Below are positions 22,104 through 58,675 of a stretch of 64,000 bases of DNA, in pieces; within the stretch, counting starts at the first letter, position 1; each line of letters opens with the position of its first letter. The notes below the pieces were generated by a model. It saw only the letters and a program-made list of their open reading frames with translations. It was not told the DNA's origin and ran no database searches. Source of the DNA: Candidatus Woesearchaeota archaeon (lineage in GTDB: Archaea; Nanobdellota; Nanobdellia; Woesearchaeales; GCA-2685855); the NCBI GenBank assembly GCA_002685855.1, contig NYYS01000018.1, positions 12,859 through 76,858 of the forward strand, read 5' to 3'. A program made the translations under genes and the position numbers.

Positions 22104-22136
22104 TCTCCCTTAAACCTTCTTAATAACAAACCTTCT

Positions 22137-24169: not shown

Positions 24170-24170
24170 C

Positions 24171-28739: not shown

Positions 28740-30610
28740 CCACCCTTCAACTTCCGCATCGAACGAATCTCTCCAACAGCCCTACCATAATCCAACTCAG
28801 TAGAACTATCAACAAACTTCATCGTCTTCCCAAGAACAGGAAGAACCTTTTCAGCACCCTTCGCAATCATCTGACACACCTGCTTATAGTTCAGATGCGC
28901 ACCCGGCTGCGTCCTCAACTCACAGATATGATGAAGCTCCCGTGCATTTACTGTAACAGGAAACCTTCCCAACGTACCCAACGGCAGCCCATACGAAGCA
29001 ACATGTGGATTAATCCTCTCAGCCGCCTCACCATACAGATCAGAAACATGCTGATAGATCTCATCCAACGGCTTGCTAAACCCTGCCATCCGAAACACCT
29101 CAGGAACAAAGAATCCCATATCCGGACTAAAATAACGGCTATCATACAACGTAAGAATCCGATGACGCCGCACATCACGAATCTCCCCAATCGTCAACAC
29201 CGCATTAATATCAAAACTAAACCGTTCAAACGCCCTCCCCGGCCTATGCCGCCGATTCGTCCGAACACCCTGATCTATTCCAGCATAGGCAAGAACAAGA
29301 CCTTCCATCTCCTCATGGTTCATCCCCCTCACCACCCTGTATGCACCCTGCTCACTCACCACAGGATCACGCTCTTTCACAATAGCCGCAACCAGATCCT
29401 CCAACTCATCGTTGCTCCAAATATCGATCGAAAAAGGAACACCTTCCTGAGAAACAGAGAGAACATCCTTCCCATACCCCAGACCACGATACCCCTCAAC
29501 AGTATATCCCTTCTCAGATGAAGACCAAAGCGGCTTATCCTTCCTCTCCTGATCATCCTCTCTCTCCACTTCAACACTCCTTGTCGTAGCCAGATACTTC
29601 AAAAAAGCCTGTGTTCTTCTACTCCTCGGATCAAGATCCTTCACCAACGGGCCCAACGAAGAAGATGAATCCCTCCGCAAAAGTTCAGCAATAACAACAC
29701 TCTCAGTAGTAGGAATACTATACCCATCCAACACAAGATCCCGAACATTCTGAGCATTCATCAACAAGGTCAACTGCGTCTTTGTTGCCAACGGCAGAAT
29801 ACTCCGCGCACGATCAAGCTGCATACTATTCAACGTCTTCTTATATGCCTGACTCAACTCCTCCTGACTTGCACCTTCACTCCCCGCTATATCCAACGCT
29901 TCAGCAACACCCGCAGAGAACTCATCAAACCTCAACACCTCCATCTCCATCGTCTTACGAACAATCTTCCCTTCATCTGTCCGAGTACTATTCAACCTTC
30001 GATACGAATCAAACAGCTGATCCATCACCTGGACAAACCGTTTTTCAAGTCCTGCCTTCTTAAACAACGGATCCACAAAATAGGGATACCTCCCCTCAAC
30101 CTTCTTATGAAACTTCCGATACCGTGTTGACTTCTCAATCCCTGCCAACAGACGATGATGCAACAGATGCATCGCCTGATACGCAGTCACATCCTCAAAA
30201 TTCACATTAATTGGAACAACCTGCGCAATAGAATCATCACCAAACTCACTAAACACCCGCTGATAAAAACCCGTGCCAAACGACTGAACAAGATCAGGAA
30301 CATTCAATTCATCAAACGCAGCCCTGCTCTCCTCATCTGCCAACACATCCTCCACAAGAGTAGTACGAACATCCTTTGGATTCCTACTCTGCTTCGACCC
30401 CAACGCACCCGAAAGAATCCCTAAAATTTTCGTAGAAAACACCGGCAGATCAAGATTCGAAAAAAACTTTTCCAACCTTGCCCCATCCTCTGTATCAAAC
30501 TCTCGCTGACGATACCCTAGTATATCACATAACTCCTCACGACTCATATCAACAAGTCCATTCGGTTTCTTCAACACATCAAGAACCATTTCCATCTTTA
30601 TTCCCCTCAC
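28736..30610 (-). CDS. thyX: FAD-dependent thymidylate synthase ThyX-family protein, unusually long (624 aa)
   Basis: C-terminal half carries the ThyX serine motif (RHRILTLYDS, 6 residues before the Ser) and 'NARELHHICELRTQPGAH'. N-terminal ~370 aa is unassigned, possibly a degenerate tandem ThyX duplication. Confidence 0.6.
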   Translation of the reverse strand: MRGIKMEMVLDVLKKPNGLVDMSREELCDILGYRQREFDTEDGARLEKFFSNLDLPVFSTKILGILSGALGSKQSRNPKDVRTTLVEDVLADEESRAAFDELNVPDLVQSFGTGFYQRVFSEFGDDSIAQVVPINVNFEDVTAYQAMHLLHHRLLAGIEKSTRYRKFHKKVEGRYPYFVDPLFKKAGLEKRFVQVMDQLFDSYRRLNSTRTDEGKIVRKTMEMEVLRFDEFSAGVAEALDIAGSEGASQEELSQAYKKTLNSMQLDRARSILPLATKTQLTLLMNAQNVRDLVLDGYSIPTTESVVIAELLRRDSSSSLGPLVKDLDPRSRRTQAFLKYLATTRSVEVEREDDQERKDKPLWSSSEKGYTVEGYRGLGYGKDVLSVSQEGVPFSIDIWSNDELEDLVAAIVKERDPVVSEQGAYRVVRGMNHEEMEGLVLAYAGIDQGVRTNRRHRPGRAFERFSFDINAVLTIGEIRDVRRHRILTLYDSRYFSPDMGFFVPEVFRMAGFSKPLDEIYQHVSDLYGEAAERINPHVASYGLPLGTLGRFPVTVNARELHHICELRTQPGAHLNYKQVCQMIAKGAEKVLPVLGKTMKFVDSSTELDYGRAVGEIRSMRKLKGG

Positions 30611-40820: not shown

Positions 40821-42359
40821 CTATCGATACCGAGAAAGATCCGGCCCAACCTCCTCCTGACCCGCCTGCCTTTTCACATCAGCAGCAACCTTCCTGCCAA
40901 GCAACCCCTCCAACCGGGAAAGAGACACACTCTTCACACCTGCAACATCCTTAATACCACTCCGAAACAACTTCCTTGCTCTTACACGACCAATATTCCG
41001 CAACCGCAACAACCCCAAAAGCTCCTCCTTTGCACCATGCCGCAACCGCGTCCGCAACACCTTCAACTCTTTCAGAATATCATGAAACTTCAACAACACA
41101 CACATCTCCTCAGCCGCATACACCAACCAATCCGCAGCATCCAACTTTGCATGAATCTCCCCCGGACGAACATTCAACGCATTCAATAATTCTTCCTCGC
41201 TCTTCTCATTCATCCACTCATCAAAAAAGAAAGCAGTCTTCACACTATTCAAAAAATCCTCATACTCACTACTATGATCCATCGGCACAGAAGTAATAAA
41301 CACCTCCTCATTCAACCCCACAAGCTCCTCCACCCAATCCAACTCCTTAACACGAACACGCAACAACGGCCGCATCTCCAACGTAGAACTCACCATCTGC
41401 AAAAAACTAAATACATTCCTCTTCTTCCCTGTCGCCCGCTTCAAAGCCTCAATAATCAACTGAGCCGTATACGGATCCAAGTACAACTCACTAACCCTCT
41501 TCCCAACCGGCGTAGCAACAAGAGACCCCTCTTCACCCAGATCAGAAGCAGACACAAACCCATCATCCTTTTTTCCACCCTCAACACGAATAAACTCCCA
41601 CTCCTCCAACTGCTCCAACGTCTTTCCAATCAACCAATGAATCTTTTCACTATCCCCATAACTATGCGCATAAAAAGTACGATCAAAAAAATCCTTCAAA
41701 GCAGACTCAGACAAACAATACTCAGTAGCAATCAACGTCAACACATACGTACGAAACACCGGCTCAACCGCCAACTTCGACAAAATCTCCTCCGGCTCAC
41801 CCTCAACATACCGCTCCCGAATCTCCTTCTTCTGCCCATCAGAAACAGCAATCGTAATCGCCTGCCCCTCAGTCTCCTTCCCCGGCCTCCCCGCCCTCCC
41901 AATCTGCTGATGATACTCCAACACAGGAATCGGACTCATCCCCCACCCCCCACTATACCGTTTCAGATCCCTCACCACAACACGAAACGCAGGAAGATCA
42001 ACACCCATCGCCAAACTCGGAGTCGAACAGATAACATGCAAACGAGAATCCCGAAACCCCTCCTCAATCAACCTCCTCTGAGAACTCGTCAACCCTGAAT
42101 GATGAAACGCAATCCCCCGCTCAACACACTTCGCAAGCCGCTTACACTGCCGCGTAGCAGAACCCACCCCCTTCAACACCTTCTCTGAAAGAACAGCCAG
42201 CTCAGACAGAACAGGAAGCTTCAACGCAATCTGCTCCGCCTGCGACTCAGCACCCCTCCGCGTATTACAAAACACCAACGCCTGCCGATCCTGCTGCACA
42301 GTATCCAAAGCAATATTCAAAACCGCATCCGGCGTTGTCTGGGGAATAGGGATCTTCAT
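40821..42359 (-). CDS. Hel308/Ski2-type helicase, C-terminal portion only (RecA2, WH, ratchet, HhH); N-terminal ATPase domain absent
   Basis: Starts at RecA2 ('QALVFCNTRRGAE'). Motif VI 'QQIGRAGRPG'. C-terminal HhH 'LRLRNIGRVRARKL'. Stop codon 12 codons upstream of the ATG in frame; TATA-like box ~35 nt upstream. Confidence 0.7.
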   Translation of the reverse strand: MKIPIPQTTPDAVLNIALDTVQQDRQALVFCNTRRGAESQAEQIALKLPVLSELAVLSEKVLKGVGSATRQCKRLAKCVERGIAFHHSGLTSSQRRLIEEGFRDSRLHVICSTPSLAMGVDLPAFRVVVRDLKRYSGGWGMSPIPVLEYHQQIGRAGRPGKETEGQAITIAVSDGQKKEIRERYVEGEPEEILSKLAVEPVFRTYVLTLIATEYCLSESALKDFFDRTFYAHSYGDSEKIHWLIGKTLEQLEEWEFIRVEGGKKDDGFVSASDLGEEGSLVATPVGKRVSELYLDPYTAQLIIEALKRATGKKRNVFSFLQMVSSTLEMRPLLRVRVKELDWVEELVGLNEEVFITSVPMDHSSEYEDFLNSVKTAFFFDEWMNEKSEEELLNALNVRPGEIHAKLDAADWLVYAAEEMCVLLKFHDILKELKVLRTRLRHGAKEELLGLLRLRNIGRVRARKLFRSGIKDVAGVKSVSLSRLEGLLGRKVAADVKRQAGQEEVGPDLSRYR

Positions 42360-46176: not shown

Positions 46177-47793
46177 ATGAAAAAAGAGGCCATACTACTT
46201 ATTTCAGTACTTTTAATTCTACCAATAACCTTAGCCGTCGACTGTGCAGATGTTCCTTATCCAGGAGCAGACGGATATCTCAACGAAAGCTATACACTAA
46301 CAGAAAATATTACCGCAAGCTCAAGGGGTCAGGTAAACAGATGTCTTAAGGTAACTGCAGATGATGTAACCCTTGATTGTAATGGATATACAATCGACAG
46401 CAAAAACATCAAACGCTCCAGCTTTTCAAGCATCGGCTATGACAGAATAACCGTCAAAAACTGTAACTTTATCAACTCAATAAGTAATGCTTTTGGCATC
46501 AATGCAGCAGAAGATGCACAAATACTCGACAACACCTTTGCAGATGATGATGCAGGATGGTCTGGTGACGGTGCACTTATTTCAGGAAACACCTTCCGTG
46601 ATCGATTTGGTATTGACGGTGATAATGCTGTAATAGAAAACAATGAATTTATAGTGAACCTGGGTATCGGCCAAGTGGCATTAAACATAGGTGGCTATTC
46701 CACGAATAATCTCATACGTTTCAACACCTTTCGTCAACCCGAACAAATAGGCGCAGGATTAAAACAAGGGCATGCCATCTATACTACCACTAGCGCTCAC
46801 TTTAATAATATTACAAACAACACTATTGAAGGGTTTAACACAGGAATAAATTTCTGGACATTTGCAGGATATACTGAGATCTACCATAACTACTTTGCGA
46901 ATAACTCTGTGAACGATTCCAACTTTGCAGTTCACGGAAACTATGGAGATCTTAACGAAGTTGCTGATAACACCTTTGCAGCAAACACCGTTGGGGTCTA
47001 TTTTGAAGGATCTGTTGACAATGTACTGTGGGGAAACAATTTTCAGTTTCCTGACGTTGTAAACTACTGGGATACAGACAACAACCATTACTGTAGTGGA
47101 GGAATAGAGAACGACTATGAATTTATGGATAATCTCCTGAATATGACCTTAGAAGAGTTTCATTCCTTTGTTATACAAAAAGAAGCAGATCTTTCCCTGC
47201 TCCACCTTGAACTTCCGTTCACCTACGAACTTCTCAACGAAACAAACAACTACTCTGTGAACATTACCTTGCCAGACTGTAATCAGACAAAGGATAATCA
47301 ATCCAACCAAAGCCTGGCGATGAGTGGAGATTTTCTGAAAGAGCTTTCAGACCCTGTCCTTTTTGATCTCGTGGAGCTTCAAAATGGCTTTCTCATGGCT
47401 CTGGATCCTTGGGATGGATTTAAATACTTCTACAATGAAAATGCCTGGAACGGCGATGTTATGGTCCATCAACCAAACGGACAAACAGATTACTGGGTGT
47501 GGGAAGTCCATTCAACACCAAACACCTACCGGGTTTGGGTCTATATTCCTGTTGACCCCATCTATGTCGGAAGCTATGCTAAACAAGCAATGTACTATAT
47601 CAAACATGCAAACGGCATGGACAAAGTAATCCTGGATCAACGCCTGGCAGGAAGTGATTGGGTAAACTTAGGAGACTATACTTTTGATGAATCCAGCTAT
47701 CAGGGTGTCGCCCTAATTGGAGGAAACGGACGAGGACATACCTTGGCAGATGCATTTAGGGCAGAAAGTATTGGGCCGCCACAGTACGATTAG
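46177..47793 (+). CDS. secreted parallel beta-helix repeat protein (538 aa)
   Basis: Signal peptide 'AILLISVLLILPITLA'. Repeated 'N..I.NN.F' beta-helix rungs. Many N-x-S/T sequons. Balanced composition; AT-rich promoter region upstream. Confidence 0.5.
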   Translation: MKKEAILLISVLLILPITLAVDCADVPYPGADGYLNESYTLTENITASSRGQVNRCLKVTADDVTLDCNGYTIDSKNIKRSSFSSIGYDRITVKNCNFINSISNAFGINAAEDAQILDNTFADDDAGWSGDGALISGNTFRDRFGIDGDNAVIENNEFIVNLGIGQVALNIGGYSTNNLIRFNTFRQPEQIGAGLKQGHAIYTTTSAHFNNITNNTIEGFNTGINFWTFAGYTEIYHNYFANNSVNDSNFAVHGNYGDLNEVADNTFAANTVGVYFEGSVDNVLWGNNFQFPDVVNYWDTDNNHYCSGGIENDYEFMDNLLNMTLEEFHSFVIQKEADLSLLHLELPFTYELLNETNNYSVNITLPDCNQTKDNQSNQSLAMSGDFLKELSDPVLFDLVELQNGFLMALDPWDGFKYFYNENAWNGDVMVHQPNGQTDYWVWEVHSTPNTYRVWVYIPVDPIYVGSYAKQAMYYIKHANGMDKVILDQRLAGSDWVNLGDYTFDESSYQGVALIGGNGRGHTLADAFRAESIGPPQYD

Positions 47794-47830
47794 GCCACTT
47801 TTTCTCTTTTTTTTCTCTTTTTTTATCAAC

Positions 47831-47944
47831 AAATACAGAAATATTTATAAATAACTGGGTGAATAAACACATAAATACAGAAATTATATAACACACAAAA
47901 ACAGAAAACGAATACAGAAATTAACATACAAATGCAGAAAAACA
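47831..47944 (+). repeat. array of A/T-rich direct repeats (consensus AATACAGAAAT) upstream of the HTH gene and giant surface-protein gene
   Basis: 'aaatacagaaat' at 47831, 47873 and 47911, plus degenerate 'aaaaacagaaaac' (47897) and 'aaatgcagaaaaac' (47931). Spacing ~42, ~38 and ~21 bp. Confidence 0.45.
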
Positions 47945-48456
47945 GGGGAAAACCAGAGCCAAAGCAAGATCTTTCTAGCCTGAGCGATCTCGAACTCTTC
48001 CAGGAACTCGGAAAAAGACTCGCAGAAAAACACCAAACAGATCCTTCCACTCTTCTCATCCCCACACCCACTCCCCAAAACACCATCCCTCTCCCCATCT
48101 TTACAGGATCCCTTTCTCCCCTAGAAGCCGTTGTCAAATACCTCCACGAAAACCACAAACTCTCATTCACCGCAATCGGAATCAAACTCAACCGCTCGGT
48201 AAAAACAATCTGGCAAGCCTACCAAACAGCAAAAAAGAAGATGCCAGAACCCTTCACACCCTTCAAAGGAGAAACACTCCCCCTCTCAGAACTCTCAAAC
48301 AGAACCTTCTCACTCTACGAAAACCTCGTTCTTTACCTTTCAAAAAAACACCGCCCGAAAGAGATCGCCCTCCTCATCAACAGACCCCAACGAAACATTA
48401 ATACAATCCTTAGCAGAGCACGAAAAAAAGATCAACAAACAAAAACAGAATCATGA
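47932..48456 (+). CDS. small HTH protein with sigma-70 region-4-like helix-turn-helix segments; candidate regulator of the downstream giant gene
   Basis: 'LSFTAIGIKLNRSVKTIWQAYQTAKKKM' and 'EIALLINRPQRNINTILSRARKK' resemble region-4/LuxR-type HTH. Overlaps the start of the 2750-aa ORF by 4 nt. Confidence 0.35.
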   Translation: MQKNRGKPEPKQDLSSLSDLELFQELGKRLAEKHQTDPSTLLIPTPTPQNTIPLPIFTGSLSPLEAVVKYLHENHKLSFTAIGIKLNRSVKTIWQAYQTAKKKMPEPFTPFKGETLPLSELSNRTFSLYENLVLYLSKKHRPKEIALLINRPQRNINTILSRARKKDQQTKTES

Positions 48457-51400
48457 ATAAAAAACAAAAAGCAAAACAAATACCCTCAGAAGGGAAATTA
48501 CTCCTACTAGTCCTATTCATACTTACAACTACACTTATCTACTACATCCAGCCAGCCTTCATCGCATTCATCATCTACGACGAAACCAGCATCACACTTC
48601 AACTCAACCAAACAATAACAGAAGATACATTCCTGCCTCTCGAAATCGGAAAAGTAGACTCCATCCATATCAAAGGCCATCTTATAGGAAACGGAACCGC
48701 AACCATAAAACTCGACCAACCAGGAAAAAACCTTCTCATCTATGAGAAAACAGGCTCTAAAGTAAATCCCCTCATCCCCAACGATCCACCCTCCGACTCA
48801 CCCCTTCAAACAACAATAACCTACGGAAACAACCCAAACTTCGACACAGACAACAACGGATGGGAACTCACCACTAATGCAATCGACTACACCGTAGAAA
48901 CAACCAACACCCAAAAATACAACCAAAGCACACTCTGCACTCGCTGGGCACTTAACAACCAATACATAGAATGCAACGGAAATGCAATGTGCTGCCTCTT
49001 CACAGGCATTGAACAAAGAACAGAACAATGGAACGCCCCTTTCAGCCTTCACGACCAACTCCTTGGAGTAAAACAAGCAAACCTCATCACAGCACAACTC
49101 ATCTCAACAACAATCAACTACACCAACATCACAACACAACCCGGATCAACACAATCCCTTCCAGGGTATTTCATCGACAACACTCTCCAATCGCCAATCG
49201 ACCACTGCGGAGAAACCTGCACCTTTGAAGGAACCCAGGATCCCCGTCTAAAAATAGAACTCCACAACGCAGTCCTTTACATCGACACAATCACCTACAC
49301 CCCCTACTCCGAAAACAAACCACCCACACTCCAAAAAAGCACCCACAAACTCTACTCCGGAGCAACACTCAAATTCACAGAACTCTTCCACGATCCAGAT
49401 AAAGACAATCTCACAATAACAATCACAAACACAACAAACCTCACACTAACAAAAACCCACCAAGGATATAAAATAGAAGGAAAAAAAGGAAACTACACCC
49501 TTGAAATAGAAGCCAAAGACCACCGCTACACAATAACAGAAAAGATAAACCTCACCCTCAAGGATTTCAACCTGGAAACCCTCCTCAACAAAAACAAAAA
49601 AGAAAAAACTGATGAAAAACCCTCTGTAAAGATAACCGGCCCCGCCGAAATCAAAGGAATCTACAAACACCCTCAAAAACAAAGCCCCTTCAAAGGAATA
49701 CAATTCGGCGCATTCATCCAAGAAGGAGATGTAGAAATAGGAATAAAAAATAAAGGCCTGCTCCTCCTCAAAGATGCAAACTACGCCGGCCTTGAAGAAA
49801 TACAGGTCAGAACACCCCCAAGCAGAAGATATGCCACAGACATCATCGCAGTAAACGACATCCAACTCAAAGAAGCAGTCTTTGTACTCCCCAAACAATC
49901 ACCAATAACCCAAATACAACACTGCCCCAACTGGAACTTTGAAGAACAAAGCTGTCCAAAATGGGAAGATGCAGGAGTGGCATTTGCACAAAACCAAACC
50001 CATGTCTGGTGGGTAGCAGACCACTTCTCAGGATGGGTAGGACTCAGCTACGGCTTTGACGATTTCGAATATGATGACGATAATAACTATTGTACAGACA
50101 CACCATCTCTTGAAAACTGGATGACAGTTTCCTGTGAAGCAAATGCGGGCTCGTTCAACCTCACAACAGACAACTGCTACTTAGGATCCTCCTGTGGAAA
50201 TGTAACCAACACAGACTCACAAGATGCTGCAAACGATGTAACAATAGTCTACAACTCCAATCTCTCTTCAGCAGAGATCGTCGACCAAAGAGTCTACTTC
50301 AAAGAGGACTGTGCAAACCCCCTCTCCGGAGGAAACGGAGATACCTACATAATGGGATTAACAAGAGGATCAGGAGCAGCAGTTGCCAGAATGGGCTTCA
50401 ATAGTGAAGGCCTTCTTGGTTGCCAACGAAGAAATATGTCAGACAGCCTAGCAAACTGCGCAGGACAAACAGCACAAAACCTCACCTGTGGACGATGGTA
50501 CTATCTCGAAATCCATTACGACACAAGAGTAAACAACCTTACCTGCTATGTCAACGGAACACCCTTCTGCTCAGAAGAAGGAGTAGTCATATTCAGAGAC
50601 AACGTAACAATAGAGGCCATAGGAATCCTCCCAACTTCAGACTACCAAAACAACGAAACATTCTTCCTCGACGAATACCACACCGCCGACAAATACCTTG
50701 GAGGCTACCCTTGGGTAGAAGATCTCAACCACACAACCAGATTCGTCACACCCGGCACCGACCTAACAATAAACGCAACAATCTACGACAACGATGTCAT
50801 CAACGGAACCCTCGGCACCGTGCTACTAGAAGGAAACTGGAGCGGAGTAATGACCAACTATACCCCCACAAGTTCAGGATCCAAATACTTCTACAAAGTC
50901 GGACGAGGAAACTTCTCAAGCAACGACTCAGTAGGCTACCGCTGGTATGCAAACGACACCATCAACCAACAATACTACTCCCCCCTGCAAATAATCACAA
51001 TAGAAAACAGATTCATCCTTGACACAGATCAAAATAACCTCACAGATCTCTTTCTCAGCAGCCTTCTTCTCGCAGACGTAGACAACGACTCAGACCTCGA
51101 CCTCTATCTCTCAGGAGCAACAGCAATACCTGGCGGAAACGTATTTTCCGGACTCTACCTCAACAACGGATCTGGACTCTTCACAGACACACTTCAAGCC
51201 AACTTCATTGCACTCAGAGAAGGATCATCCACCTTTGGCGATACAAACAATGATGGACTCCCCGACCTCATAATCTCAGGATTAAATAGCGGATCAAGAT
51301 ACACAAGAGGCTATATCAACAATCTATCAAATCCAGGAACATTCTACAACGACACCTCATCGAGTTACAATCCTCTTTCCCTTAGCAGTTTTGCACTTGC

Positions 51401-54400
51401 AGATTATGATGCAGACGGAGACTATGATCTCATCGCAACAGGACTTTTTGCAGCCGGAGAAGGAGCAGGAATTAACACATTTACAGATGGTGTATCAGCT
51501 CTTGATACAACCCATATCAACAACTTCACAAACGTATCCCGTCCAGCACTTCTATTAGCAGATATAGATAGTGATGGAGACCTTGACATCTTCATGACAG
51601 GACAAACAGAAGCCACCCCCCTCTACACAGGAATCTACCTCAACAACGGCTCAGGAAGATACATACAAGACCAATCACAGGCAAACCTCCTCGCAATCTT
51701 TAATGGAGCAGCAGTAGCAGCAGACATAGATGCAGATGGAGACATCGACATCATCATCGCAGGAGACTCAAACGAAACAACCACAAAAAACTACACAATG
51801 GAGGTCCTCCTCAACGACGGAAATGGAAACTTCTCAATAGACAGTCAACAAGACAACCTCACCGGACTCGATTTTGCTTCACTCGCAGTAGGAGATATCG
51901 ACCTCGACGGAACAATAGACATCTTTGCAATGGGAAACACCTCAAATGGACCTGCTGCATTCACCTATCTCAACAACGGATCCGGCTACTTCAAAGAAGA
52001 CGAATCATTCTCAGCAATGCCCCTTCATTACGGAAGCGCAGCCCTTGCAGATATTGATAACGACGACGACCTTGATCTTATCATCTCAGGAACAAACAAC
52101 ACCTATCGTAACTACACTCTTGTCTACAAAAACCAGATCAACAGAAACATGACCAACCGCCCCCCTGTAGCTCCCACAGGCATCGACTGGAACAGATCCG
52201 GAAGCAACGGCAAACTCGAACTAAACTGGTCCATAGGAACAGACAATGCAACAGGAGCAAACGCAGTCACACCTGACAACGCAATAACCTATCACCTCAG
52301 TCTCGGAACAACTCCCGGCGCATCAGACATCATGAGCAGATCCTATGGAGGATTCTCCAACCCGAGCAACGGCCACCTTGGAAACAGACTCCAATCAAGA
52401 AACCTCTCACTCTACCTCGAAGGAACCTACTATGCTACCATCCAATCAATAGACGCACAAGGAAAACTCTCCGACGACAACCTAACATTACTAACTAATC
52501 AACCACCAACACATTCAGCCCCCATACTCAACACCTCCCCCCTCAACAACAACCGAACAAGTGAAAACTTTACCTGCTACAACCAAACAACCTACGACTT
52601 CGACAACGACACAATCGTAAACGCCTACAAGTTCTACAGAAACAGCACTTCAGCAGTCATCGTGCAAGCAAGCTTTGAGGACAACAGCACAACCATTGAA
52701 AACTTCCCACCGCTCACAGAATCAGGAACAAACTATACAAACGGCTACCAAGGAAGAGGAATCTACATAGATGACAACGACCAACTCAACTATAGTGCAA
52801 CCTCCCTTCTTACAGCTGAAGAGGCCACGATCGAGCTCTGGACACGCTTCGACTGGGACCCCGGAGCAACCGGAGACACAAACCACACACTTATATCCTT
52901 CGGAAACCAATCAAGCTATCAGAATACAGGAATACTTTTCTACAACGACGTATACAATCTCCTCGCCCTTACCCTATTTGGTGAAACAGGATCTCCTCGT
53001 ACAGTAAGCTACGGAATAAGCGATATCAACCCAAACGAATGGCACCACATACTCGTATCATGGGACTACAACAACGGAACAGGAATAGAGATGGAACTCT
53101 ACCTTGATGGAGCTCTCGTAGACAACACTCCCTCTTCCCAAACAGCCCTTACTGTGAATTCAGGAGGAACAGGAGGAGACGGTGTCTTCATAGGGAGATA
53201 CAACGACATAGCCTATGCAAACGCAACAATTGACGAACTCTACATCTGGAACGTTCAGATGGGCCTTGAAAAAGCAGTCCAAAGCAATGCAACAAACTAC
53301 GGCTTTGTTCCATCTGGATCAACCAACAAAAACGAAACCTGGACCTGCGAAGTAACACCTCAGGACAGATACACAAGAGGCCTCCCATCAAACTCCAGCC
53401 AGATCCTAATGCTCTCACAACTACAAGTTGATCTAAACGACCCAGACAACGGAACAACAAACCAGCTTTTCACAAACGTATCCTACAATTGCAGTGCAGA
53501 ATCCTCTTCAGTTTTATCAAATATAACCCTCTATCCTGACTTCGAAGGATGGCAACAGAACGGAACAACCACCACCTCAGGACTCAACAACTCCATAAAC
53601 ATAACAAGATCCTACGAAGGATTAATCACAGGAGATAAACAACGCTTTACAGACGGAAGAATTCTCTGGAACTGTAGAGTAAATGATTCATCAGGAGAAT
53701 CAGCCATAGCAACAACAAATTCCACATTCAGCAACTGGGACCTCGGAAACCACTCCAACACTTCCCTCATCAACAACCGCCTCAGTCTCATAAAAAACAC
53801 CTCAAACGAATATGAAAACCTAACAGGAACATTCGACAGCAGAGTCTTCGATGGCGGTGTAGGAGCCTACTGGGATAACTTTTCATGGAAACCTCTCACA
53901 CCCTATGGTGTTGGCCTCTTCAACACCACAAACATACTCTATCACTTTGACAACTCTTCAGATCTGCAAGAAGACAACGGAACCTATACCGATGCAACAC
54001 TCCAGGGCACCAACTGCTCATCAAGCGGAACATCGGTTCCACTATTAGACACAGAAAAGATCTTCGGAACATTTGCAGTCGATTTCGACGGAACAGACGA
54101 CTATATCTCCTGTAATGACACAACTTTATTAAACCTTTCAGGAATATACTCGATCTCGTTCTGGATCAGAACCAATGCAACAAACGTTCCCATATTCGCA
54201 AAAAATGATTATGCAGGAACTCCTGCAGGTTTCCAATTCCAAATAACCTCAAACGGCACAGCAGCATTCAAGGCAACACGATCAGGAACAACAATGTACC
54301 TAGAAGGAACAACAAACATATCCGATGACAGATGGCACCACATCTCAACAAGACACATACAACTTGTCATGCCCGGACCATCATTATCACAGAACATATC

Positions 54401-56705
54401 TCTTTATGTTGATGGAGTATACGAAGCAGGAGCTATAGGTGCAATATTTTTCAATCTTAAAACAGCAGCCAGACTTGAAATAGGAAGAAACGACACCTCC
54501 TACTACGACGGACTAATTGATGAGCTTTCAATAACTTCTTTAATGCCCGAAAAGAACCATAGTTACGAATTCGAACGAGGCCTCTCAAACTTAACATTCC
54601 AGGTACGAAGCGATGCAGACAACGCCAGCTGGCCCGCCCACCTCGGACCAGACGGAACAGCAAACACCTTCTTCACAAACTGGACACACTCCGAATTAAA
54701 TGTATCCAAAAACCGCTACTTCCAATACAGAGTCTTCCTCAACTCATCACGAAACAGCATCACCCCAGGACTCGAACGAGTACTCATAAACTATACACCT
54801 AACCCCCCACCAAACTTTGGAAATGTAACTCTCCAGAACAACTTCCATCTCTTTGATGGAAACGGAATAGACCTCGGAGCAGTCGTTGTAAACGATACCT
54901 ACATCGACAACGGAACAAGTGATGGAGGATCAAATGCAACAAACTACAATAACCAAAGCCAAATGATCATGATGCAATTTAACTCTACAGATAGAACAGA
55001 AAGACGCGGCATCTTCGCATTTGAAACCGACCAGGTAAAAATTGTAAACATCTCTAACGCCACCCTAGAACTATTCGCAATAGCAGTTAACCAGACACTT
55101 CAGAACATAAGTCTTCATAGGGTAACCTCTACCTGGAACGTCGACGTAGTAAGCTTTATCAACAGAACAACTTCAGGACTATGGACAACACCTGGAGGAG
55201 ACATTACAGCAGCAGAAGAAAGTTGGACAAACCTAACAACAAGCAACAGCTGGCATAACTGGACAATAACCAATATCGTCCAAAACTGGCTCAACGGAAG
55301 CTGGTCAAACCAAGGAGTACTACTCAAACCATCAGGATACGGAACAAACAAAAACAGCCAATGGGCAGACAGCTCAAGAAGATACTTAAATCCTCGCCTC
55401 GTAATCCGCTGGAACATTCCCTCCCTTTCAATCGTCGAAAACCTTAACACAACACTAAACCTATCACTCTACTTTTCCGACACATACGGAGAAGAACTCA
55501 ACTATACTGTAAACGCAAGCTCAAACTTCACCACCTCAATCGACCAGACAACAGGCATCGTAAACATAAGCCCGCAAGCAGGCTTCATAGGTAATGGAAC
55601 ACTCATCGCATCTGCAACAGACGGCTACCAATCTACAAACAGCAACAACTTCACCGTAAACATACGAGCAGACACACCATCAATCATACTCAACGCATCA
55701 CCTGACCTTCCAAACGCCACACAAAACCTCACCTGTAACATAACAGCTGCAGATAACCAAACCGCAAACCTCACCGTAGAATGGTACTGGTATAACAGCT
55801 CAACAGTCTTCAATTCAGGAAACACAACCGTACAAAACAACACAGAAACCACTATCGCCACTGTAAACTCTGCAAACACCCTAAAAGACCAAGTCTGGAA
55901 CTGCACCGCAAGAGTAAACAGAAGCATCCGCTTCTCACCCTATGTAACAGATAGCCTCACGATTGTAGGAACCCCTCCCTCTACGCCCGTACCCCTCACA
56001 CCAACAAATGGAAACACAACCTTCCGTGACCGCCAGGTTAACTTTACCTGGCAGGCAGCCACAGACGTCGACAACGACTCAATAACCTATGCAATAGAAG
56101 TCAACAACTCCGTCTGCCCAAACATACGAAACGACTCAATCAACACAACCTACTACCTCTCATCAATACAACTCTGTACAGACGACGAAGCAGCCTCCAA
56201 CCTCTACTATTGGAGAGTTGTAGCTAGTGACGGAACACAAAACGGAACCTATTCCTCAATATTCAACTTTTCCATAGAACCCTATGTAACAATAACAATA
56301 GATCCTAACAGTGTAGGATTCGGAACAGGCTATGGAAGAGGAGCGACAAACGACACAACAAATGATAGTCCCCCGCCCTTCACAATACGCAACGATGGAA
56401 ACGTTGTCGCAAACCTGACAAACATAACTGCAAACCAAACACTCTGGGGAAGCTCAAGCGCAGGACTCGGAACACGCTACATGAGAGTACGTGCCTCAAA
56501 CAGCACAGAAGCAAACAGCTACAACGACTCAGGATCGATCACAAACTTCACAAACCTTAACTCATCCATCCCAAACGTCATTGCACAACTCAACTACAAC
56601 GACAGCAGCGACGAAGTAGACGTAGATCTCTCAATCGAAGTACCTGCTGACGAAGTCGCAGGAGCAAAAAACACCACAATACTATTCATATGGCAACAAT
56701 CATGA
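48453..56705 (+). CDS. giant (2750 aa) secreted/surface protein: N-terminal TM/signal, FG-GAP (integrin-alpha-like beta-propeller) repeats, two LamG/ConA-like lectin domains, many Ig-like beta domains, very rich in N-glycosylation sequons
   Basis: Seven 'LADxDxDGDxDL..SG' FG-GAP/VCBS-like blades (51.06-52.10 kb). LamG-like 'TIELWTRFDWDP...WHHILVSWDYNNG...ELYLDGALV...DELYIWN' and 'YSISFWIRTNAT...WHHISTRH...SLYVDGVY'. More than 150 N-x-S/T sequons. Confidence 0.7.
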   Translation: MNKKQKAKQIPSEGKLLLLVLFILTTTLIYYIQPAFIAFIIYDETSITLQLNQTITEDTFLPLEIGKVDSIHIKGHLIGNGTATIKLDQPGKNLLIYEKTGSKVNPLIPNDPPSDSPLQTTITYGNNPNFDTDNNGWELTTNAIDYTVETTNTQKYNQSTLCTRWALNNQYIECNGNAMCCLFTGIEQRTEQWNAPFSLHDQLLGVKQANLITAQLISTTINYTNITTQPGSTQSLPGYFIDNTLQSPIDHCGETCTFEGTQDPRLKIELHNAVLYIDTITYTPYSENKPPTLQKSTHKLYSGATLKFTELFHDPDKDNLTITITNTTNLTLTKTHQGYKIEGKKGNYTLEIEAKDHRYTITEKINLTLKDFNLETLLNKNKKEKTDEKPSVKITGPAEIKGIYKHPQKQSPFKGIQFGAFIQEGDVEIGIKNKGLLLLKDANYAGLEEIQVRTPPSRRYATDIIAVNDIQLKEAVFVLPKQSPITQIQHCPNWNFEEQSCPKWEDAGVAFAQNQTHVWWVADHFSGWVGLSYGFDDFEYDDDNNYCTDTPSLENWMTVSCEANAGSFNLTTDNCYLGSSCGNVTNTDSQDAANDVTIVYNSNLSSAEIVDQRVYFKEDCANPLSGGNGDTYIMGLTRGSGAAVARMGFNSEGLLGCQRRNMSDSLANCAGQTAQNLTCGRWYYLEIHYDTRVNNLTCYVNGTPFCSEEGVVIFRDNVTIEAIGILPTSDYQNNETFFLDEYHTADKYLGGYPWVEDLNHTTRFVTPGTDLTINATIYDNDVINGTLGTVLLEGNWSGVMTNYTPTSSGSKYFYKVGRGNFSSNDSVGYRWYANDTINQQYYSPLQIITIENRFILDTDQNNLTDLFLSSLLLADVDNDSDLDLYLSGATAIPGGNVFSGLYLNNGSGLFTDTLQANFIALREGSSTFGDTNNDGLPDLIISGLNSGSRYTRGYINNLSNPGTFYNDTSSSYNPLSLSSFALADYDADGDYDLIATGLFAAGEGAGINTFTDGVSALDTTHINNFTNVSRPALLLADIDSDGDLDIFMTGQTEATPLYTGIYLNNGSGRYIQDQSQANLLAIFNGAAVAADIDADGDIDIIIAGDSNETTTKNYTMEVLLNDGNGNFSIDSQQDNLTGLDFASLAVGDIDLDGTIDIFAMGNTSNGPAAFTYLNNGSGYFKEDESFSAMPLHYGSAALADIDNDDDLDLIISGTNNTYRNYTLVYKNQINRNMTNRPPVAPTGIDWNRSGSNGKLELNWSIGTDNATGANAVTPDNAITYHLSLGTTPGASDIMSRSYGGFSNPSNGHLGNRLQSRNLSLYLEGTYYATIQSIDAQGKLSDDNLTLLTNQPPTHSAPILNTSPLNNNRTSENFTCYNQTTYDFDNDTIVNAYKFYRNSTSAVIVQASFEDNSTTIENFPPLTESGTNYTNGYQGRGIYIDDNDQLNYSATSLLTAEEATIELWTRFDWDPGATGDTNHTLISFGNQSSYQNTGILFYNDVYNLLALTLFGETGSPRTVSYGISDINPNEWHHILVSWDYNNGTGIEMELYLDGALVDNTPSSQTALTVNSGGTGGDGVFIGRYNDIAYANATIDELYIWNVQMGLEKAVQSNATNYGFVPSGSTNKNETWTCEVTPQDRYTRGLPSNSSQILMLSQLQVDLNDPDNGTTNQLFTNVSYNCSAESSSVLSNITLYPDFEGWQQNGTTTTSGLNNSINITRSYEGLITGDKQRFTDGRILWNCRVNDSSGESAIATTNSTFSNWDLGNHSNTSLINNRLSLIKNTSNEYENLTGTFDSRVFDGGVGAYWDNFSWKPLTPYGVGLFNTTNILYHFDNSSDLQEDNGTYTDATLQGTNCSSSGTSVPLLDTEKIFGTFAVDFDGTDDYISCNDTTLLNLSGIYSISFWIRTNATNVPIFAKNDYAGTPAGFQFQITSNGTAAFKATRSGTTMYLEGTTNISDDRWHHISTRHIQLVMPGPSLSQNISLYVDGVYEAGAIGAIFFNLKTAARLEIGRNDTSYYDGLIDELSITSLMPEKNHSYEFERGLSNLTFQVRSDADNASWPAHLGPDGTANTFFTNWTHSELNVSKNRYFQYRVFLNSSRNSITPGLERVLINYTPNPPPNFGNVTLQNNFHLFDGNGIDLGAVVVNDTYIDNGTSDGGSNATNYNNQSQMIMMQFNSTDRTERRGIFAFETDQVKIVNISNATLELFAIAVNQTLQNISLHRVTSTWNVDVVSFINRTTSGLWTTPGGDITAAEESWTNLTTSNSWHNWTITNIVQNWLNGSWSNQGVLLKPSGYGTNKNSQWADSSRRYLNPRLVIRWNIPSLSIVENLNTTLNLSLYFSDTYGEELNYTVNASSNFTTSIDQTTGIVNISPQAGFIGNGTLIASATDGYQSTNSNNFTVNIRADTPSIILNASPDLPNATQNLTCNITAADNQTANLTVEWYWYNSSTVFNSGNTTVQNNTETTIATVNSANTLKDQVWNCTARVNRSIRFSPYVTDSLTIVGTPPSTPVPLTPTNGNTTFRDRQVNFTWQAATDVDNDSITYAIEVNNSVCPNIRNDSINTTYYLSSIQLCTDDEAASNLYYWRVVASDGTQNGTYSSIFNFSIEPYVTITIDPNSVGFGTGYGRGATNDTTNDSPPPFTIRNDGNVVANLTNITANQTLWGSSSAGLGTRYMRVRASNSTEANSYNDSGSITNFTNLNSSIPNVIAQLNYNDSSDEVDVDLSIEVPADEVAGAKNTTILFIWQQS

Positions 56706-57967
56706 TGAAAAAAGCCCTAACCTGGATCCTTGTATTTCTCATCCTGCTAAGCACAGTTACAGCCCTGGGCATAGCACCCTCCAGAAAAGTCATCGACTAC
56801 GAACCCGGAGAAATACAATTAGGAGGAAGAATCCTCAACAACGAAAAACAAGCCATGAAAGTCATGCTTATTGCAGAAGGACCCCTCAAAGAACACGTAA
56901 CCTTTGAACAAAACATACTAAACATAAAACAAGATCAAGGAGAATTCCCCTTCACCTACACAGTAGACATTCCCGAAAGTCTCGAACCCGGAACACAAGA
57001 AATCAACATCCTTGCTGTACAACTCCCTCCTGACGAAACCGTCCTTGTAGTCAATCTTCCCGGAGATGACACACCCGAATCAATCATAACAACAAGCTAC
57101 GAAACAGAAAAAAATGTAGATGACCAAAAAGAAGTATCAGCAAGAATAGCAGTAACACAACAACTCCGCATCATGGTTCCCTTCCCCGGACAATGGGTAG
57201 ACGGAAGACTCTTTATCCAAACAGCCAACATAGGTGATGACATCGAATTCGTAGTCAGCATCTTCAACAGAGGAACAGAACCCGTAAACGTATCAGGAAG
57301 AATCATCATAAAAGGACCCACAAACCAACTCATCGACGAAATCGAGCTCACAACACAACACCTTGCAGAAAACGGAGAAGGAAAACTCGTAGGACAATGG
57401 AAAAATGTAGAATATGCAGGAGAATACCTCGCAGAAGCACAAATCCTCTTTGCAGACAAACACTTCACACTCCAAAAACAATTCAGCGTTGGAAACCTCT
57501 TTATCCAAATCAAAGACATCGTTGTAGCAAACTTCAGACTTGGAAGCATCGCAAAATTCGACGTCCTCGTAAGAAACCAATGGAACAAAGCAGTCCAAGA
57601 AATCTTTGCAAACTTCACTGTCCTTGACAAAGCAGGAAAAGTACTATCAACATTCAAAAGCTCAGAAATCTCACTCCAAGCACTCCAGGAAGGAAACGTT
57701 ACCGGATACTGGGACACCGCAGGAGTAGATCAGGGAGCCTACGACATCAACGTCATACTCAACTACGCAAGCAGAACATCTGAAAAACTTTTCTCAGCAG
57801 TTGTTGGACTCGACTCAATTGAATTCATCAACTCTCCCATAGGAAGAGTCATAGACGATTCTGAACGTTTCCAACAAACCTACCAACTACTCATTGCACT
57901 TGTCGGATTATTAATACTACTAAATATTGTTGGCATAACTATCTTCATCCGAAAAAAGAGAAGCTAG
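56690..57967 (+). CDS. surface protein with signal peptide, beta-sandwich (CARDB-like) repeats and C-terminal TM anchor
   Basis: Signal 'LTWILVFLILLSTVTALG'. C-terminal 'LLIALVGLLILLNIVGITIFIRKKRS'. Overlaps the giant gene's stop by 16 nt. Confidence 0.55.
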   Translation: MATIMMKKALTWILVFLILLSTVTALGIAPSRKVIDYEPGEIQLGGRILNNEKQAMKVMLIAEGPLKEHVTFEQNILNIKQDQGEFPFTYTVDIPESLEPGTQEINILAVQLPPDETVLVVNLPGDDTPESIITTSYETEKNVDDQKEVSARIAVTQQLRIMVPFPGQWVDGRLFIQTANIGDDIEFVVSIFNRGTEPVNVSGRIIIKGPTNQLIDEIELTTQHLAENGEGKLVGQWKNVEYAGEYLAEAQILFADKHFTLQKQFSVGNLFIQIKDIVVANFRLGSIAKFDVLVRNQWNKAVQEIFANFTVLDKAGKVLSTFKSSEISLQALQEGNVTGYWDTAGVDQGAYDINVILNYASRTSEKLFSAVVGLDSIEFINSPIGRVIDDSERFQQTYQLLIALVGLLILLNIVGITIFIRKKRS

Positions 57968-58033: not shown

Positions 58034-58675
58034 ATGGACGGCCAACCCCCATCCAAAATAGTGGTAAAAACATCCGGGATTCACAACAAAGGAGTTTTTA
58101 CCACGACCTTTATTTCTAAAGGAGACAATATAATAGAATACATAGGAGAAAAAATCACAAAAGAAGAAGCCGAAAAAAGAGCAGAGCAAGTACGACTAAA
58201 AGCCAAACAAAACCCTTCAAACGGCTCAGTCTACATCTTCAATCTAAACAAACACTACGACCTCGATGGAGACCTGCCGCATAACACCGCAAAATATATT
58301 AACCACTCCTGCGAACCAAACTGTGAAGCAATAGACGAAGATGGCCGCATCTGGATCGTAGCACTCAAAAAAATCAAAGAAGGCGAAGAACTCACCTACG
58401 ACTACGGCTATGACATTGAAGACTACGAAGAACACCCCTGCAAATGCGGAAAAAACTGCTGCATAGGTTACATTATTTCAAAAGTCCAATGGCCCAAACT
58501 AAAAAAACGCCTTAAAAAAAAGAAATATTTAATAAATAAAACAATACAAAAGGAAGAATGGATAAAAAATGCCCCTTTTGCAAATCCCGTTCTATCAAAT
58601 ACATCAAAGAACAAAACACCCGATTTCTCATCTGTACCAAATGCAACTATGATGAATACTCCAAAGATCAAGTGA
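58034..58675 (+). CDS. SET-domain protein (protein lysine methyltransferase family)
   Basis: 'NHSCEPNCEA', 'ELTYDYGYD' and post-SET 'CKCGKNCCIGY'. Lys-rich C-terminal tail. Confidence 0.75.
   Translation: MDGQPPSKIVVKTSGIHNKGVFTTTFISKGDNIIEYIGEKITKEEAEKRAEQVRLKAKQNPSNGSVYIFNLNKHYDLDGDLPHNTAKYINHSCEPNCEAIDEDGRIWIVALKKIKEGEELTYDYGYDIEDYEEHPCKCGKNCCIGYIISKVQWPKLKKRLKKKKYLINKTIQKEEWIKNAPFANPVLSNTSKNKTPDFSSVPNATMMNTPKIK

Follow-up and report, generated by a model that had tools for sequence, protein, structure and literature searches.

Attachment to host cells is the presumed way of life of DPANN archaea, and to our knowledge almost no transcription factor–operator pair has been defined for them. 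The archaeal repressors MDR1, LrpA, Phr and TrmB bind between the TATA box and the transcription start site, and autoregulation is typical of extracytoplasmic function (ECF) sigma systems. Castelle et al. (2021, PMC8204110) reported that genes classified as sigma-70 (fam00359) are especially prevalent in Woesearchaeota, that no anti-sigma factor was identified for them and that the mechanism of their control is unclear. Here we describe a locus that bears on these genes. It lies in a 64,000-nucleotide stretch of DNA from a marine archaeon, Candidatus Woesearchaeota archaeon (assembly GCA_002685855.1, contig NYYS01000018.1), called the window below, and consists of a three-gene, operon-like cassette at positions 47828-57967. 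The cassette encodes a 174-residue helix-turn-helix (HTH) regulator, a giant surface protein of 2750 residues and a partner protein of ~421 residues, preceded by an array of direct repeats.

The HTH proteins of this family match Sigma70_r4_2 and are found in Woesearchaeota and Nanoarchaeia, and the genes of Castelle et al. are prevalent in Woesearchaeota. The two families are probably the same. However, that paper (PMC8204110) mentions neither a link to giant surface proteins nor fusions or upstream repeats. On the sequence evidence set out below, the window holds one instance of a large, Woesearchaeota-specific family of cassettes that would each combine an HTH protein, a giant glycosylated surface protein, an anchored partner and an operator array. 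We consider it likely that the HTH protein binds the array and autoregulates its own cassette, probably as a repressor.

The cassette and its repeat array

The three genes lie on the same strand and are joined by short overlaps:

47932-48456, + strand: HTH regulator gene, 174 residues
48453-56705, + strand: giant surface-protein gene, 2750 residues
56702-57967, + strand: partner gene, 421 residues counted from Met5 (425 residues if the start is 56690)

An ATGA overlap joins the stop codon of the HTH gene to the start of the giant gene. The open reading frames (ORFs) and the overlap proposed in a first-pass annotation of this DNA hold as they were given. A second ATGA occurs where Met5 of the partner (56702) overlaps the giant's stop codon (56703-56705). 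Met5 is the likely start, and NCBI and ENA annotate the partner as 421 residues. The partner had been described as a C-terminally anchored protein of 425 residues; the anchor is retained as a predicted transmembrane helix at residues 393-424, and the length is likely to be 421.

The window contains just three exact copies of the 11-mer AATACAGAAAT, which start at 47832, 47874 and 47911 and all lie within 90 nt. The chance expectation is 0.14, and none of 100 shuffles reached three copies. Two further copies with two mismatches start at 47898 and 47931, the second of which overlaps the ATG. The count of three exact and two degenerate copies is therefore as first described, and the spacings among the exact copies and the last copy, earlier put at ~42, ~38 and ~21 nt, are adjusted to 42, 37 and 20. 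A repeat finder returned units of 15-22 nt in two families, D1 and D2 (for example AATAAACACATAAATACAGAAA), and the 11-mer appears to be merely the 3' half of a bipartite site of ~15-19 nt. No further array was found in the window, and the 11-mer matches with one mismatch elsewhere in the 64 kb are singletons. The elements of the promoter region are listed in order, with L001 denoting the only close homolog of the cassette:

47828-47842, + strand: putative operator copy O1, AACAAATACAGAAAT, with the exact 11-mer at 47832-47842; family D2
47845-47852, + strand: TATA-like box TTTATAAA within ATTTATAAATAA, 88 nt before the ATG and kept in L001
47862-47884, + strand: putative operator copy O2, AATAAACACATAAATACAGAAAT, with the exact 11-mer at 47874-47884; reference copy of D1
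47883-47890, + strand: weaker second TATA-like box ATTATATA, not conserved in L001
47886-47908, + strand: putative degenerate operator copy O3, ATATAACACACAAAAACAGAAAA, with the two-mismatch match at 47898; D1 copy, 77%
47907-47921, + strand: putative operator copy O4, AACGAATACAGAAAT, with the exact 11-mer at 47911-47921; D2 copy, 93%
47919-47941, + strand: putative degenerate operator copy O5, AATTAACATACAAATGCAGAAAA, extending over the HTH start codon at 47932

Copy O1 sits two bases upstream of the TATA-like box and thus covers the position of the B recognition element (BRE); it stands beside the same box in L001. Copy O2 overlaps the transcription start predicted from the TATA box (~47873), a position extrapolated from the 28-30 nt that separate TATA box and ATG in the leaderless-type genes of the window. 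Copies O3 to O5 fill the leader down to the ATG, and O3 is conserved in L001 at the same spacing. In the other window genes with a recognisable TATA box, the box mostly lies at -29 to -32 from the ATG, which suggests that leaderless transcripts prevail in the window. The HTH operon is exceptional, with its TATA box at -88 and the interval between box and ATG filled with repeats. Further, L001 (62% amino acid identity) keeps the TATA box and the flanking genes, and each of the five [A/G]CAGAAA copies recurs there with unchanged spacing (42/24/13/20).

Repeats in front of related genes

The family was collected with HMMER from 1.84 billion cluster representatives, 1776 of which matched at E<=1e-3; a word-indexed search with the HTH protein had returned just three relatives. 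Most members have 150-210 residues, with an N-terminal helix and two modules, and others have ~340 residues and four modules. When one genome per species was scanned with a family alignment (A2), 219 relatives were obtained, and the locus counts below use the best 80 of them. All of these 80 loci belong to Woesearchaeota or Nanoarchaeia metagenome-assembled genomes (MAGs), where some third-party annotation (TPA) bins labelled 'uncultured Methanosarcinales' were taken as the same lineage on the basis of their similarity within the family. The same contig was found in TARA Oceans assemblies, the partner protein has a 100%-identical counterpart at NCBI that is assigned to 'Candidatus Woesearchaeota archaeon', and the minus strand of the window encodes an archaeal Hel308 helicase (40821-42359). 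The DPANN origin first read from the sequence is right on these grounds, and the provenance of the 80 loci bears it out.

Within the 170 nt upstream of 55 HTH genes, almost all loci carry multiple direct copies of a motif near TACTTACATAnACAG, which can be written as a ~15-nt direct repeat CTTACAWAnnnnn. Boxes of the TTTATAAATA type are interspersed among the copies, the last of which in many loci reaches up to the ATG or overlaps it (...TACTTACATG). The motif is largely confined to these sites: 151 of 262 same-strand matches to ACTTACA lie within 400 nt upstream of HTH starts, which make up 3% of the 684 kb (~39-fold enrichment), whereas none of the 41 opposite-strand matches does. When a cluster was defined as at least three copies and an HTH ORF was sought within 450 nt, 45 of 53 clusters were followed by such an ORF, and one further cluster precedes the giant-HTH pair of L027. 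The first-pass annotation had named random occurrence of the repeats in other AT-rich intergenic regions as one observation that would undo its proposal. Chance was rejected on two counts, the three copies against 0.14 expected in the window and the confinement of the relatives' motif upstream of HTH operons. Three fused giants that were examined (L085, L086 and L088) have two to four copies of ACACATA(N)TAAGTA flanking a TTTATAAGTA box, and the ACACATA core is common to these and to the window repeats.

Orphan clusters were observed in L013, L032, L040, L048, L053, L077 and L082, with neither an HTH-family ORF nor an obvious long ORF downstream. They may be remnants, sites of other regulon members or promoters of small genes.

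The distances between successive copies peak at 21, 32, 42, 53, 63, 74 and 84 nt. Of 155 spacings, 119 are at most 1 nt off a multiple of 10.5, and the Rayleigh resultant peaks at period 10.5 (R=0.66, near-zero phase). Phasing with the helical turn points to proteins bound on one side of the DNA duplex rather than to an RNA element. It bears on the possibility that the repeats act in the transcript, as an element of the 5' leader that would govern how the operon mRNA is translated or how stable it is. That idea draws on the strict strand specificity, on the position of four of the five window copies downstream of the best TATA box, the last of them overlapping the start codon, and on the many loci in which the last copy abuts the ATG. 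However, spacing by multiples of 10.5 nt reflects the geometry of duplex DNA, many relatives have copies upstream of the TATA box, and the window leader is unstructured (minimum free energy -1.9 kcal/mol, z-score -0.85) and matches no Rfam family. A structured RNA element was rejected because the leader has neither a stable fold nor an Rfam match, and we hold any action of the repeats in RNA to be very improbable.

The position of the repeats relative to the promoter is also regular. In 19 of 25 loci with a copy downstream of a recognisable TATA box, the next repeat begins 14-16 nt past the box, which would put it between the TATA box and the expected start site. The repeats could instead be reiterated core-promoter or initiator modules, that is, tandem promoters that yield strong transcription or several start sites, and would then not be bound by the HTH protein. 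Copies 1 and 2 of the window each precede an A/T-rich TATA-like element, and copies 2 and 3 start ~28 nt past such an element, at the expected start site; several relatives have two TATA-like boxes interleaved with repeats. On the other hand, arrays of up to 9-11 copies at 21-nt spacing leave no room for a separate TATA box and BRE, and L001 does not conserve the second TATA-like box while it keeps the repeats. Further, the repeats almost exclusively precede HTH operons, and their variable half tracks an HTH helix (see below), which would be unexpected of a generic promoter element. Tandem promoters are accordingly rated an unlikely account, if a slightly better one than an RNA element. The operator array proposed in the first-pass annotation is supported by the strand-specific upstream confinement, the helical phasing, the position relative to the TATA box and the covariation with the HTH helix, and we continue with the repeats as candidate operators.

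A putative regulator with tandem region-4-like modules

The 174-residue protein passes a Pfam threshold only for Sigma70_r4_2 (29.3 bits, cut-off 25.7), a family that is also matched by 46 of 50 family members. The AlphaFold model, built on a 50-sequence alignment (pLDDT 92.9), has two three-helix HTH modules at residues 63-103 and 128-173. Both results agree with the two region-4-like segments that had been read from the translation. The N-terminus is a helical segment, with just two short helices formed by the first 50 residues, and the predicted recognition helices are RSVKTIWQAYQTAKKK in module 1 and RPQRNINTILSRARKK in module 2. In Foldseek comparisons each module superposes on the DNA-binding domains of RcsB (LuxR-type) and of SigR region 4 over 41-51 residues at ~1-3.4 A, with a probability of 0.99 for RcsB domains and a root-mean-square deviation of 1.3 A for SigR region 4. 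No full-length structural analogue was found by Foldseek, the best whole-chain E-value being 0.13, and by sequence, the closest PDB entry is sigma-H region 4 (E=8e-5). The predicted fold is the HTH bundle of the GerE/region-4 type, but the Pfam GerE profile (PF00196) is not matched by the window protein and is matched by just 2 of 50 relatives.

These matches could be taken to mean, in line with automatic annotation, that the protein is a true bacterial-type sigma factor that redirects RNA polymerase to these promoters. The Sigma70_r4_2 match is above its cut-off, weak NCBIfam SigH/ECF matches accompany it, and sigma-70 genes of Woesearchaeota are mentioned in the literature (PMC8204110). In the upstream regions of L005-L084, moreover, the CTTACA half-site matches the bacterial -35 hexamer TTGACA at 4/6 positions, a loose likeness that may be coincidence. 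However, region 4 is present and region 2 is not: Sigma70_r2 gave no match in the window protein and is not among the families listed for the 50 members, 46 of which have region-4-type matches alone. The NCBIfam sigma70-ECF model scores 19.1 bits against a cut-off of 42.9, and the protein consists of two region-4-like modules. The host is also an archaeon with machinery of the TATA-binding protein/transcription factor B (TBP/TFB) type, as illustrated by Hel308 in the window and TATA boxes at -29. A true sigma factor was rejected for want of region 2 and for the sigma70-ECF score far under the cut-off, and we give this reading the least credence of all those considered.

An apparent recognition code

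The two modules differ in how far their recognition helices vary. In module 2 the helix hardly changes (RDDRTIWTVYxRAKKK, mean pairwise difference 0.21), and neither does the 5' half-site, CTTACA. The helix of module 1 is variable (mean pairwise difference 0.60), and its classes map almost one-to-one onto classes of the 3' half-site:

helix class IALAVTY: 3' half-site (A)TAATAT
helix class ERNIWHIY: 3' half-site AACGTAT
helix class (S)EKTIWQAY: 3' half-site A(T/A)ACAG / AAAGA
helix class RTIWGSY: 3' half-site (A/G)CGAG
helix class NIWNSY: 3' half-site AAGT
helix class QGVWQAY: 3' half-site T(G/T)TAC

In a Mantel test the helix-1 distance correlates with the half-site distance (r=0.65, p <= 3e-4). 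The partial correlation is 0.43 once divergence of the rest of the protein is regressed out, and the converse value is 0.18. The four paralogs of one MAG (L008, L016, L029 and L041) share helix 2 and CTTACA and have four helix-1 types with four 3' halves. An invariant helix paired with an invariant half-site and a variable helix paired with a variable one, even within a single genome, are what specific recognition would predict.

The window protein fits this scheme on both sides. Its helix 1, RSVKTIWQAY, belongs to the ACAG class and matches ATACAGAAA. Helix 2 (RPQRNINTILSRARKK) is unusually diverged, and the 5' half-site likewise, reading ACACATA/ACATACA instead of CTTACAT.

Proposed mechanism

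From the arrangement of the locus, the linkage in the family, the repeat statistics and the covariation, we infer the following. The HTH protein would bind the direct repeats before its own gene, with the C-terminal module 2 reading the 5' half (CTTACA in most relatives, ACAYA in the window lineage) and the N-terminal module 1 reading the 3' half (ATACAG(AAA) in the window). Neighbouring bound proteins would share one face of the helix. Occupancy over BRE, predicted start and leader would block recruitment of TFB and RNA polymerase, with negative autoregulation as the result. Placement of sites over BRE and transcription start is classic for repression in archaea, and negative autoregulation is favoured because the sites in the window cover the BRE and the predicted start.

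Several points weigh against this model. The sign of regulation could be positive, and another factor that co-occurs with HTH operons could bind the repeats. Phasing in the window is partial: the 42 nt between the copies at 47835 and 47877 fit, as do the 20 nt, but the 37 nt from 47877 to 47914 correspond to 3.5 turns. The 5' half-site of the window departs from the family consensus, and L001 is the sole close relative that could confirm it; no nearer relatives of the window's HTH protein turned up in two metagenome scans, so that the window type of operator rests on L001. Seven of the 53 repeat clusters have no recognisable HTH operon downstream. Finally, the statistics of phasing and covariation take related loci as independent, and both shared ancestry and 21-nt tandem duplication inflate them.

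Linkage to giant surface proteins

In 71 of the 80 loci a same-strand ORF overlaps or abuts the HTH stop codon. Among these 71 ORFs, 57 have at least 500 residues or run off the locus, 29 have at least 1000 residues, with a median density of 3.6 sequons per 100 residues, and 38 have a strongly hydrophobic segment in the first 80 residues. Comparative genomics had been suggested as a check on whether the HTH gene co-occurs with giant adhesins, and co-occurrence was found, often with a giant. Three arrangements are known. The HTH gene precedes the giant, as in the window and in L089 (a 31%-identical relative with the order HTH-giant-partner); it follows the giant, as in L027, where the order is array-giant-HTH; or the two are fused. 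The fused form accounts for 21 of the 150 best representatives, in which two or four HTH modules occupy the extreme C-terminus of a giant of 650-5900 residues. Together with the N-terminal module that recurs in the abutting ORFs (below), these results sustain the description of the HTH gene as dedicated: synteny is conserved in three arrangements and the genes can be fused.

In L089 the HTH gene (2067-2210) is reduced to a 47-residue ORF with module 2 alone, and no repeats are evident in the stretch 1430-1800. This cassette may be decaying or frameshifted.

The fused giants have an N-terminal cytoplasmic helical domain, a strong transmembrane anchor and a sequon-rich ectodomain of LamG, beta-helix and Ig type. 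In every case the HTH modules come after a short hydrophobic segment with a K/R cluster behind it (for example ...GSWTIRIFTIALTLRRKRKKK). This segment spans 13-16 residues, with a KD19 of 1.0-1.7 compared with 2.4-3.2 for the N-terminal anchors, and the fused HTH is likely to be cytoplasmic, judging from the predicted topology. The segment often ends in I-P, followed by the polybasic cluster. The layout recalls sortase- or archaeosortase-type sorting signals, and processing at that point is a possibility. Nine of the fused proteins (P0004, P0005, P0006, P0018, P0031, P0088, P0125, P0128 and P0135) share a ~95-residue cytoplasmic helical domain before the first transmembrane segment, with the consensus MGRTRIA...YSEYE.LL.KK..GR.L.EW..Y.D.Y...C...I. 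The window giant is without it. The domain could be a cytoplasmic partner of the C-terminal HTH modules.

The giant of the window starts with a short basic stretch, and its one hydrophobic anchor near the N-terminus follows at ~residues 15-40. The regions recognised in it are the following, with a cut-off of 27.6 bits for Laminin_G_3:

48750-49412, + strand: conserved Cys-containing N-terminal module, ~residues 100-320, found by tblastn; no Pfam match
51030-52142, + strand: FG-GAP region, ~residues 860-1230; Pfam FG-GAP_3 97.6 bits, FG-GAP 44.9 bits
52779-53255, + strand: first LamG/ConA-like lectin domain, ~residues 1443-1601; Laminin_G_3 27.7 and 40.5 bits in overlapping pieces
54087-54533, + strand: second LamG/ConA-like lectin domain, ~residues 1879-2027; Laminin_G_3 61.8 bits
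54990-55346, + strand: region resembling the disaggregatase-related repeat, ~residues 2180-2298; 33.3 bits, just under the cut-off of 33.9
55620-56702, + strand: C-terminal module, ~residues 2390-2750; tblastn matches to L037, L056, L020 and L010

The N-terminal module recurs in ORFs just after the HTH gene at about two dozen loci (tblastn) and appears to define a family of proteins encoded downstream of HTH genes. Seven calcium-loop repeats of the D-x-D/N-x-D-G/D (DxDxDG) type can be read in the translation at ~residues 870-1215, and with the Pfam matches they fit the seven FG-GAP blades first described; the region is presumed to be a seven-bladed beta-propeller. The two LamG modules described earlier are found as two separate Laminin_G_3 regions above the cut-off, and Laminin_G_2 scores 26.5 on the whole giant against a cut-off of 22.9. 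More than 150 N-glycosylation sequons had been claimed. The count is exactly 150 N-x-S/T sequons, and the enrichment stands, with ~55 expected from composition; it is on this enrichment that the predicted N-glycosylation is based. The C-terminal module ends without a membrane anchor, and in L037 and L010 the match to it directly precedes a homolog of the partner. Pfam detected no protease, nuclease or lytic transglycosylase domain in the giant. A role in host attachment is suggested by the domain content.

The partner model (pLDDT 84.5) consists of an N-terminal signal or anchor helix, about four Ig-like beta-sandwiches, with a disordered loop at 116-150, and the C-terminal transmembrane helix, followed by RKKRS. 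Foldseek found just generic Ig-like sandwich neighbours. BLASTP found no similarity between the partner and the fused giants, so that its derivation from their membrane-proximal module by detachment is unsupported at the sequence level.

Coupling to the cell surface is the more tentative part of what we infer. As an extension of the autoregulation model, the giant could control the availability of the HTH protein, so that contact with a host would feed back on expression of the adhesin. Tethering or proteolytic release would serve in the fused forms, and sequestration or co-translational assembly in split forms such as that of the window. Such a cassette would be a functional analogue of ECF sigma/anti-sigma pairs or of tethered factors of the ToxR/Notch type. 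The proposal is suggested by the Rosetta-stone fusions, in which two or four HTH modules stand behind a hydrophobic segment and K/R cluster of sequon-rich giants, by the ATGA translational coupling in the window, by the occurrence of all three gene orders, and by the Woesearchaeota sigma-70-classified genes without an identified anti-sigma partner in Castelle et al. 2021 (PMC8204110). Fusions and translational coupling, which are architectural evidence, thus point to a layer of tethering or titration by the surface protein. However, the ~15 residues that precede the giant's anchor, its cytoplasmic N-tail, are not conserved in L001 and contain no anti-sigma-like domain, the N-terminal 350 residues are without a Pfam match, and the cytoplasmic tail of the partner is just RKKRS. 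The C-terminal hydrophobic segment of the fused forms is short and of low KD19, which makes its topology uncertain, neither a protease nor a signal was identified, and fusion may reflect co-expression alone. We therefore regard surface coupling as possible but doubtful.

Equally speculative is its generalisation to a lineage-wide system of Woesearchaeota, in which the regulator translationally coupled to each adhesin, or fused to it behind a membrane segment, would read a private bipartite operator, with a constant half for module 2 and a paralog-specific half for module 1, and its tethering or release at the membrane would transduce host contact. If this were true, a genome with several orthogonal cassettes could control the members of its adhesin repertoire independently or in a mutually exclusive way. 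The system would then be an archaeal counterpart of cell-surface signalling and would answer what DPANN 'sigma factors' do.

Neighbouring genes and other features of the window

Archaeal transcription terminates at oligo-T tracts, and one probable terminator of this type parts the cassette from the upstream gene:

47796-47826, + strand: T-rich tract after the stop codon (47793) of a gene for a 538-residue protein

The 538-residue protein (46177-47793) has NosD/beta-helix and Golvesin_C domains and is syntenic with the cassette in L001. Its gene has a TATA box that is also unusually distant from the ATG (-59). The protein may itself be secreted or surface-exposed, as a further component of this neighbourhood. 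On the other side, a SET-domain gene (58034-58675, 89.7 bits) starts 66 nt past the partner gene. A TTTATAAA box of its own stands 29 nt ahead of its ATG, repeats are absent, and the gene probably gives a separate leaderless transcript. A second gene of the HTH family was not found in the 64-kb window.

An extreme strand asymmetry runs across 1-64000, with a plus-strand GC skew of -0.2 to -0.56 and an AT skew of +0.1 to +0.4. It is not simply a coding-strand effect because it persists over minus-strand genes such as Hel308 (40821-42359), and it is far stronger than the usual replication skew. The segment 14000-20500 is an island of low GC (0.31-0.41) and low skew. Its minus-strand proteins include one with an RHS-repeat-associated core domain (16004-17215, 75.8 bits) and one with a T9SS/Por-type C-terminal sorting domain (18441-19775, 26.8 bits, cut-off 23). 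These bacterial-type features in an archaeal contig may reflect horizontal acquisition.

Within 20877-24304 long ORFs overlap on both strands, for example 20970-22595 (+, 541 residues) with 20877-22103 (-, 408 residues) and 23168-24304 (+) with 23102-24262 (-). The overlaps are probably a by-product of the few stop codons of the G-poor strand, and gene calls need care here. In the minus-strand ORF 28736-30610 (624 residues), the C-terminal ~80 residues alone match ThyX (53.7 bits, under the cut-off of 87.9), and the ORF would have an unusually long N-terminal extension or be a fusion.

Comparison with known systems

The proteins studied here are tandem region-4 proteins without region 2 and are thus not sigma factors, unlike what the classification of the 'sigma-70' genes of Castelle et al. 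(PMC8204110) would imply. As in ECF sigma/anti-sigma pairs, a region-4 gene overlaps a gene whose product crosses the membrane once and has a large portion outside the cytoplasm, and the regulator is proposed to act on its own promoter. Unlike ECF pairs, there is no sigma region 2, the 15-residue cytoplasmic tail of the giant carries no anti-sigma domain, the transcription apparatus is archaeal, and phased multi-copy direct repeats surround a TATA box rather than -35/-10 elements. The fold of each module is that of LuxR/FixJ (GerE) HTH domains, RcsB and sigma region 4 (SigR, SigH). In contrast to LuxR/FixJ, two modules are arranged in tandem behind an N-terminal helical segment, with no receiver or ligand domain.

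The fused relatives resemble ToxR, TcpP and CadC in combining DNA-binding modules, a membrane segment and a large external domain. However, their HTH is C-terminal, behind a second, short hydrophobic segment, and the DNA-binding fold of ToxR and CadC is a winged helix of the OmpR type, unlike the HTH here. DNA-binding modules and external domain lie on one chain in the 21 of 150 best representatives, by predicted topology, and are separate genes in the window. The operators lie 14-16 nt past the TATA box in relatives and over the BRE and predicted start in the window, which recalls MDR1, LrpA, Phr and TrmB. The differences from these repressors lie in the tandem region-4 HTH in place of ArsR, Lrp or TrmB folds, in the far larger arrays of up to ~10 phased copies, and in the dedication of the regulator to a single giant-protein operon.

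Among surface proteins, the nearest counterparts are the SPEARE proteins of Nanohaloarchaeota and the Woese- and Pacearchaeota giants with murein-transglycosylase domains (PMC8204110), which are likewise very large, anchored, adhesion-type, multidomain proteins of ultra-small putative episymbionts. Modules of the LamG/beta-helix/Ig type are shared with relatives. Unlike those DPANN giants, no protease, nuclease or lytic transglycosylase domain was detected here, and the window giant comes with a conserved N-terminal module, an anchored partner of Ig repeats, and a linked HTH gene and putative operator array. In the literature on Woesearchaeota and DPANN giants with HTH or sigma factors, as far as it lies outside subscription-only journals, no description of the cassette was found, nor of the link to giants, the fusions, the repeat arrays or the helix/half-site correspondence.

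For DPANN archaea, the 174-residue protein and its ~15-19-nt bipartite site offer a concrete candidate pair of regulator and operator, together with an apparent code across dozens of lineages. The regulator is tied genetically, and in some lineages covalently, to giant surface proteins. The Woesearchaeota 'sigma-70' genes can accordingly be reread as tandem region-4 DNA-binding regulators, with the giants suggested as the missing partner, and the orthogonal helix/half-site classes could serve as small programmable DNA-binding modules. Taken against the systems compared above, the kind of mechanism is a known one, that of an autoregulated HTH repressor with phased operators, possibly coupled to the membrane, while the protein architecture, the dedication to giant surface proteins and the modular recognition code appear to be new.

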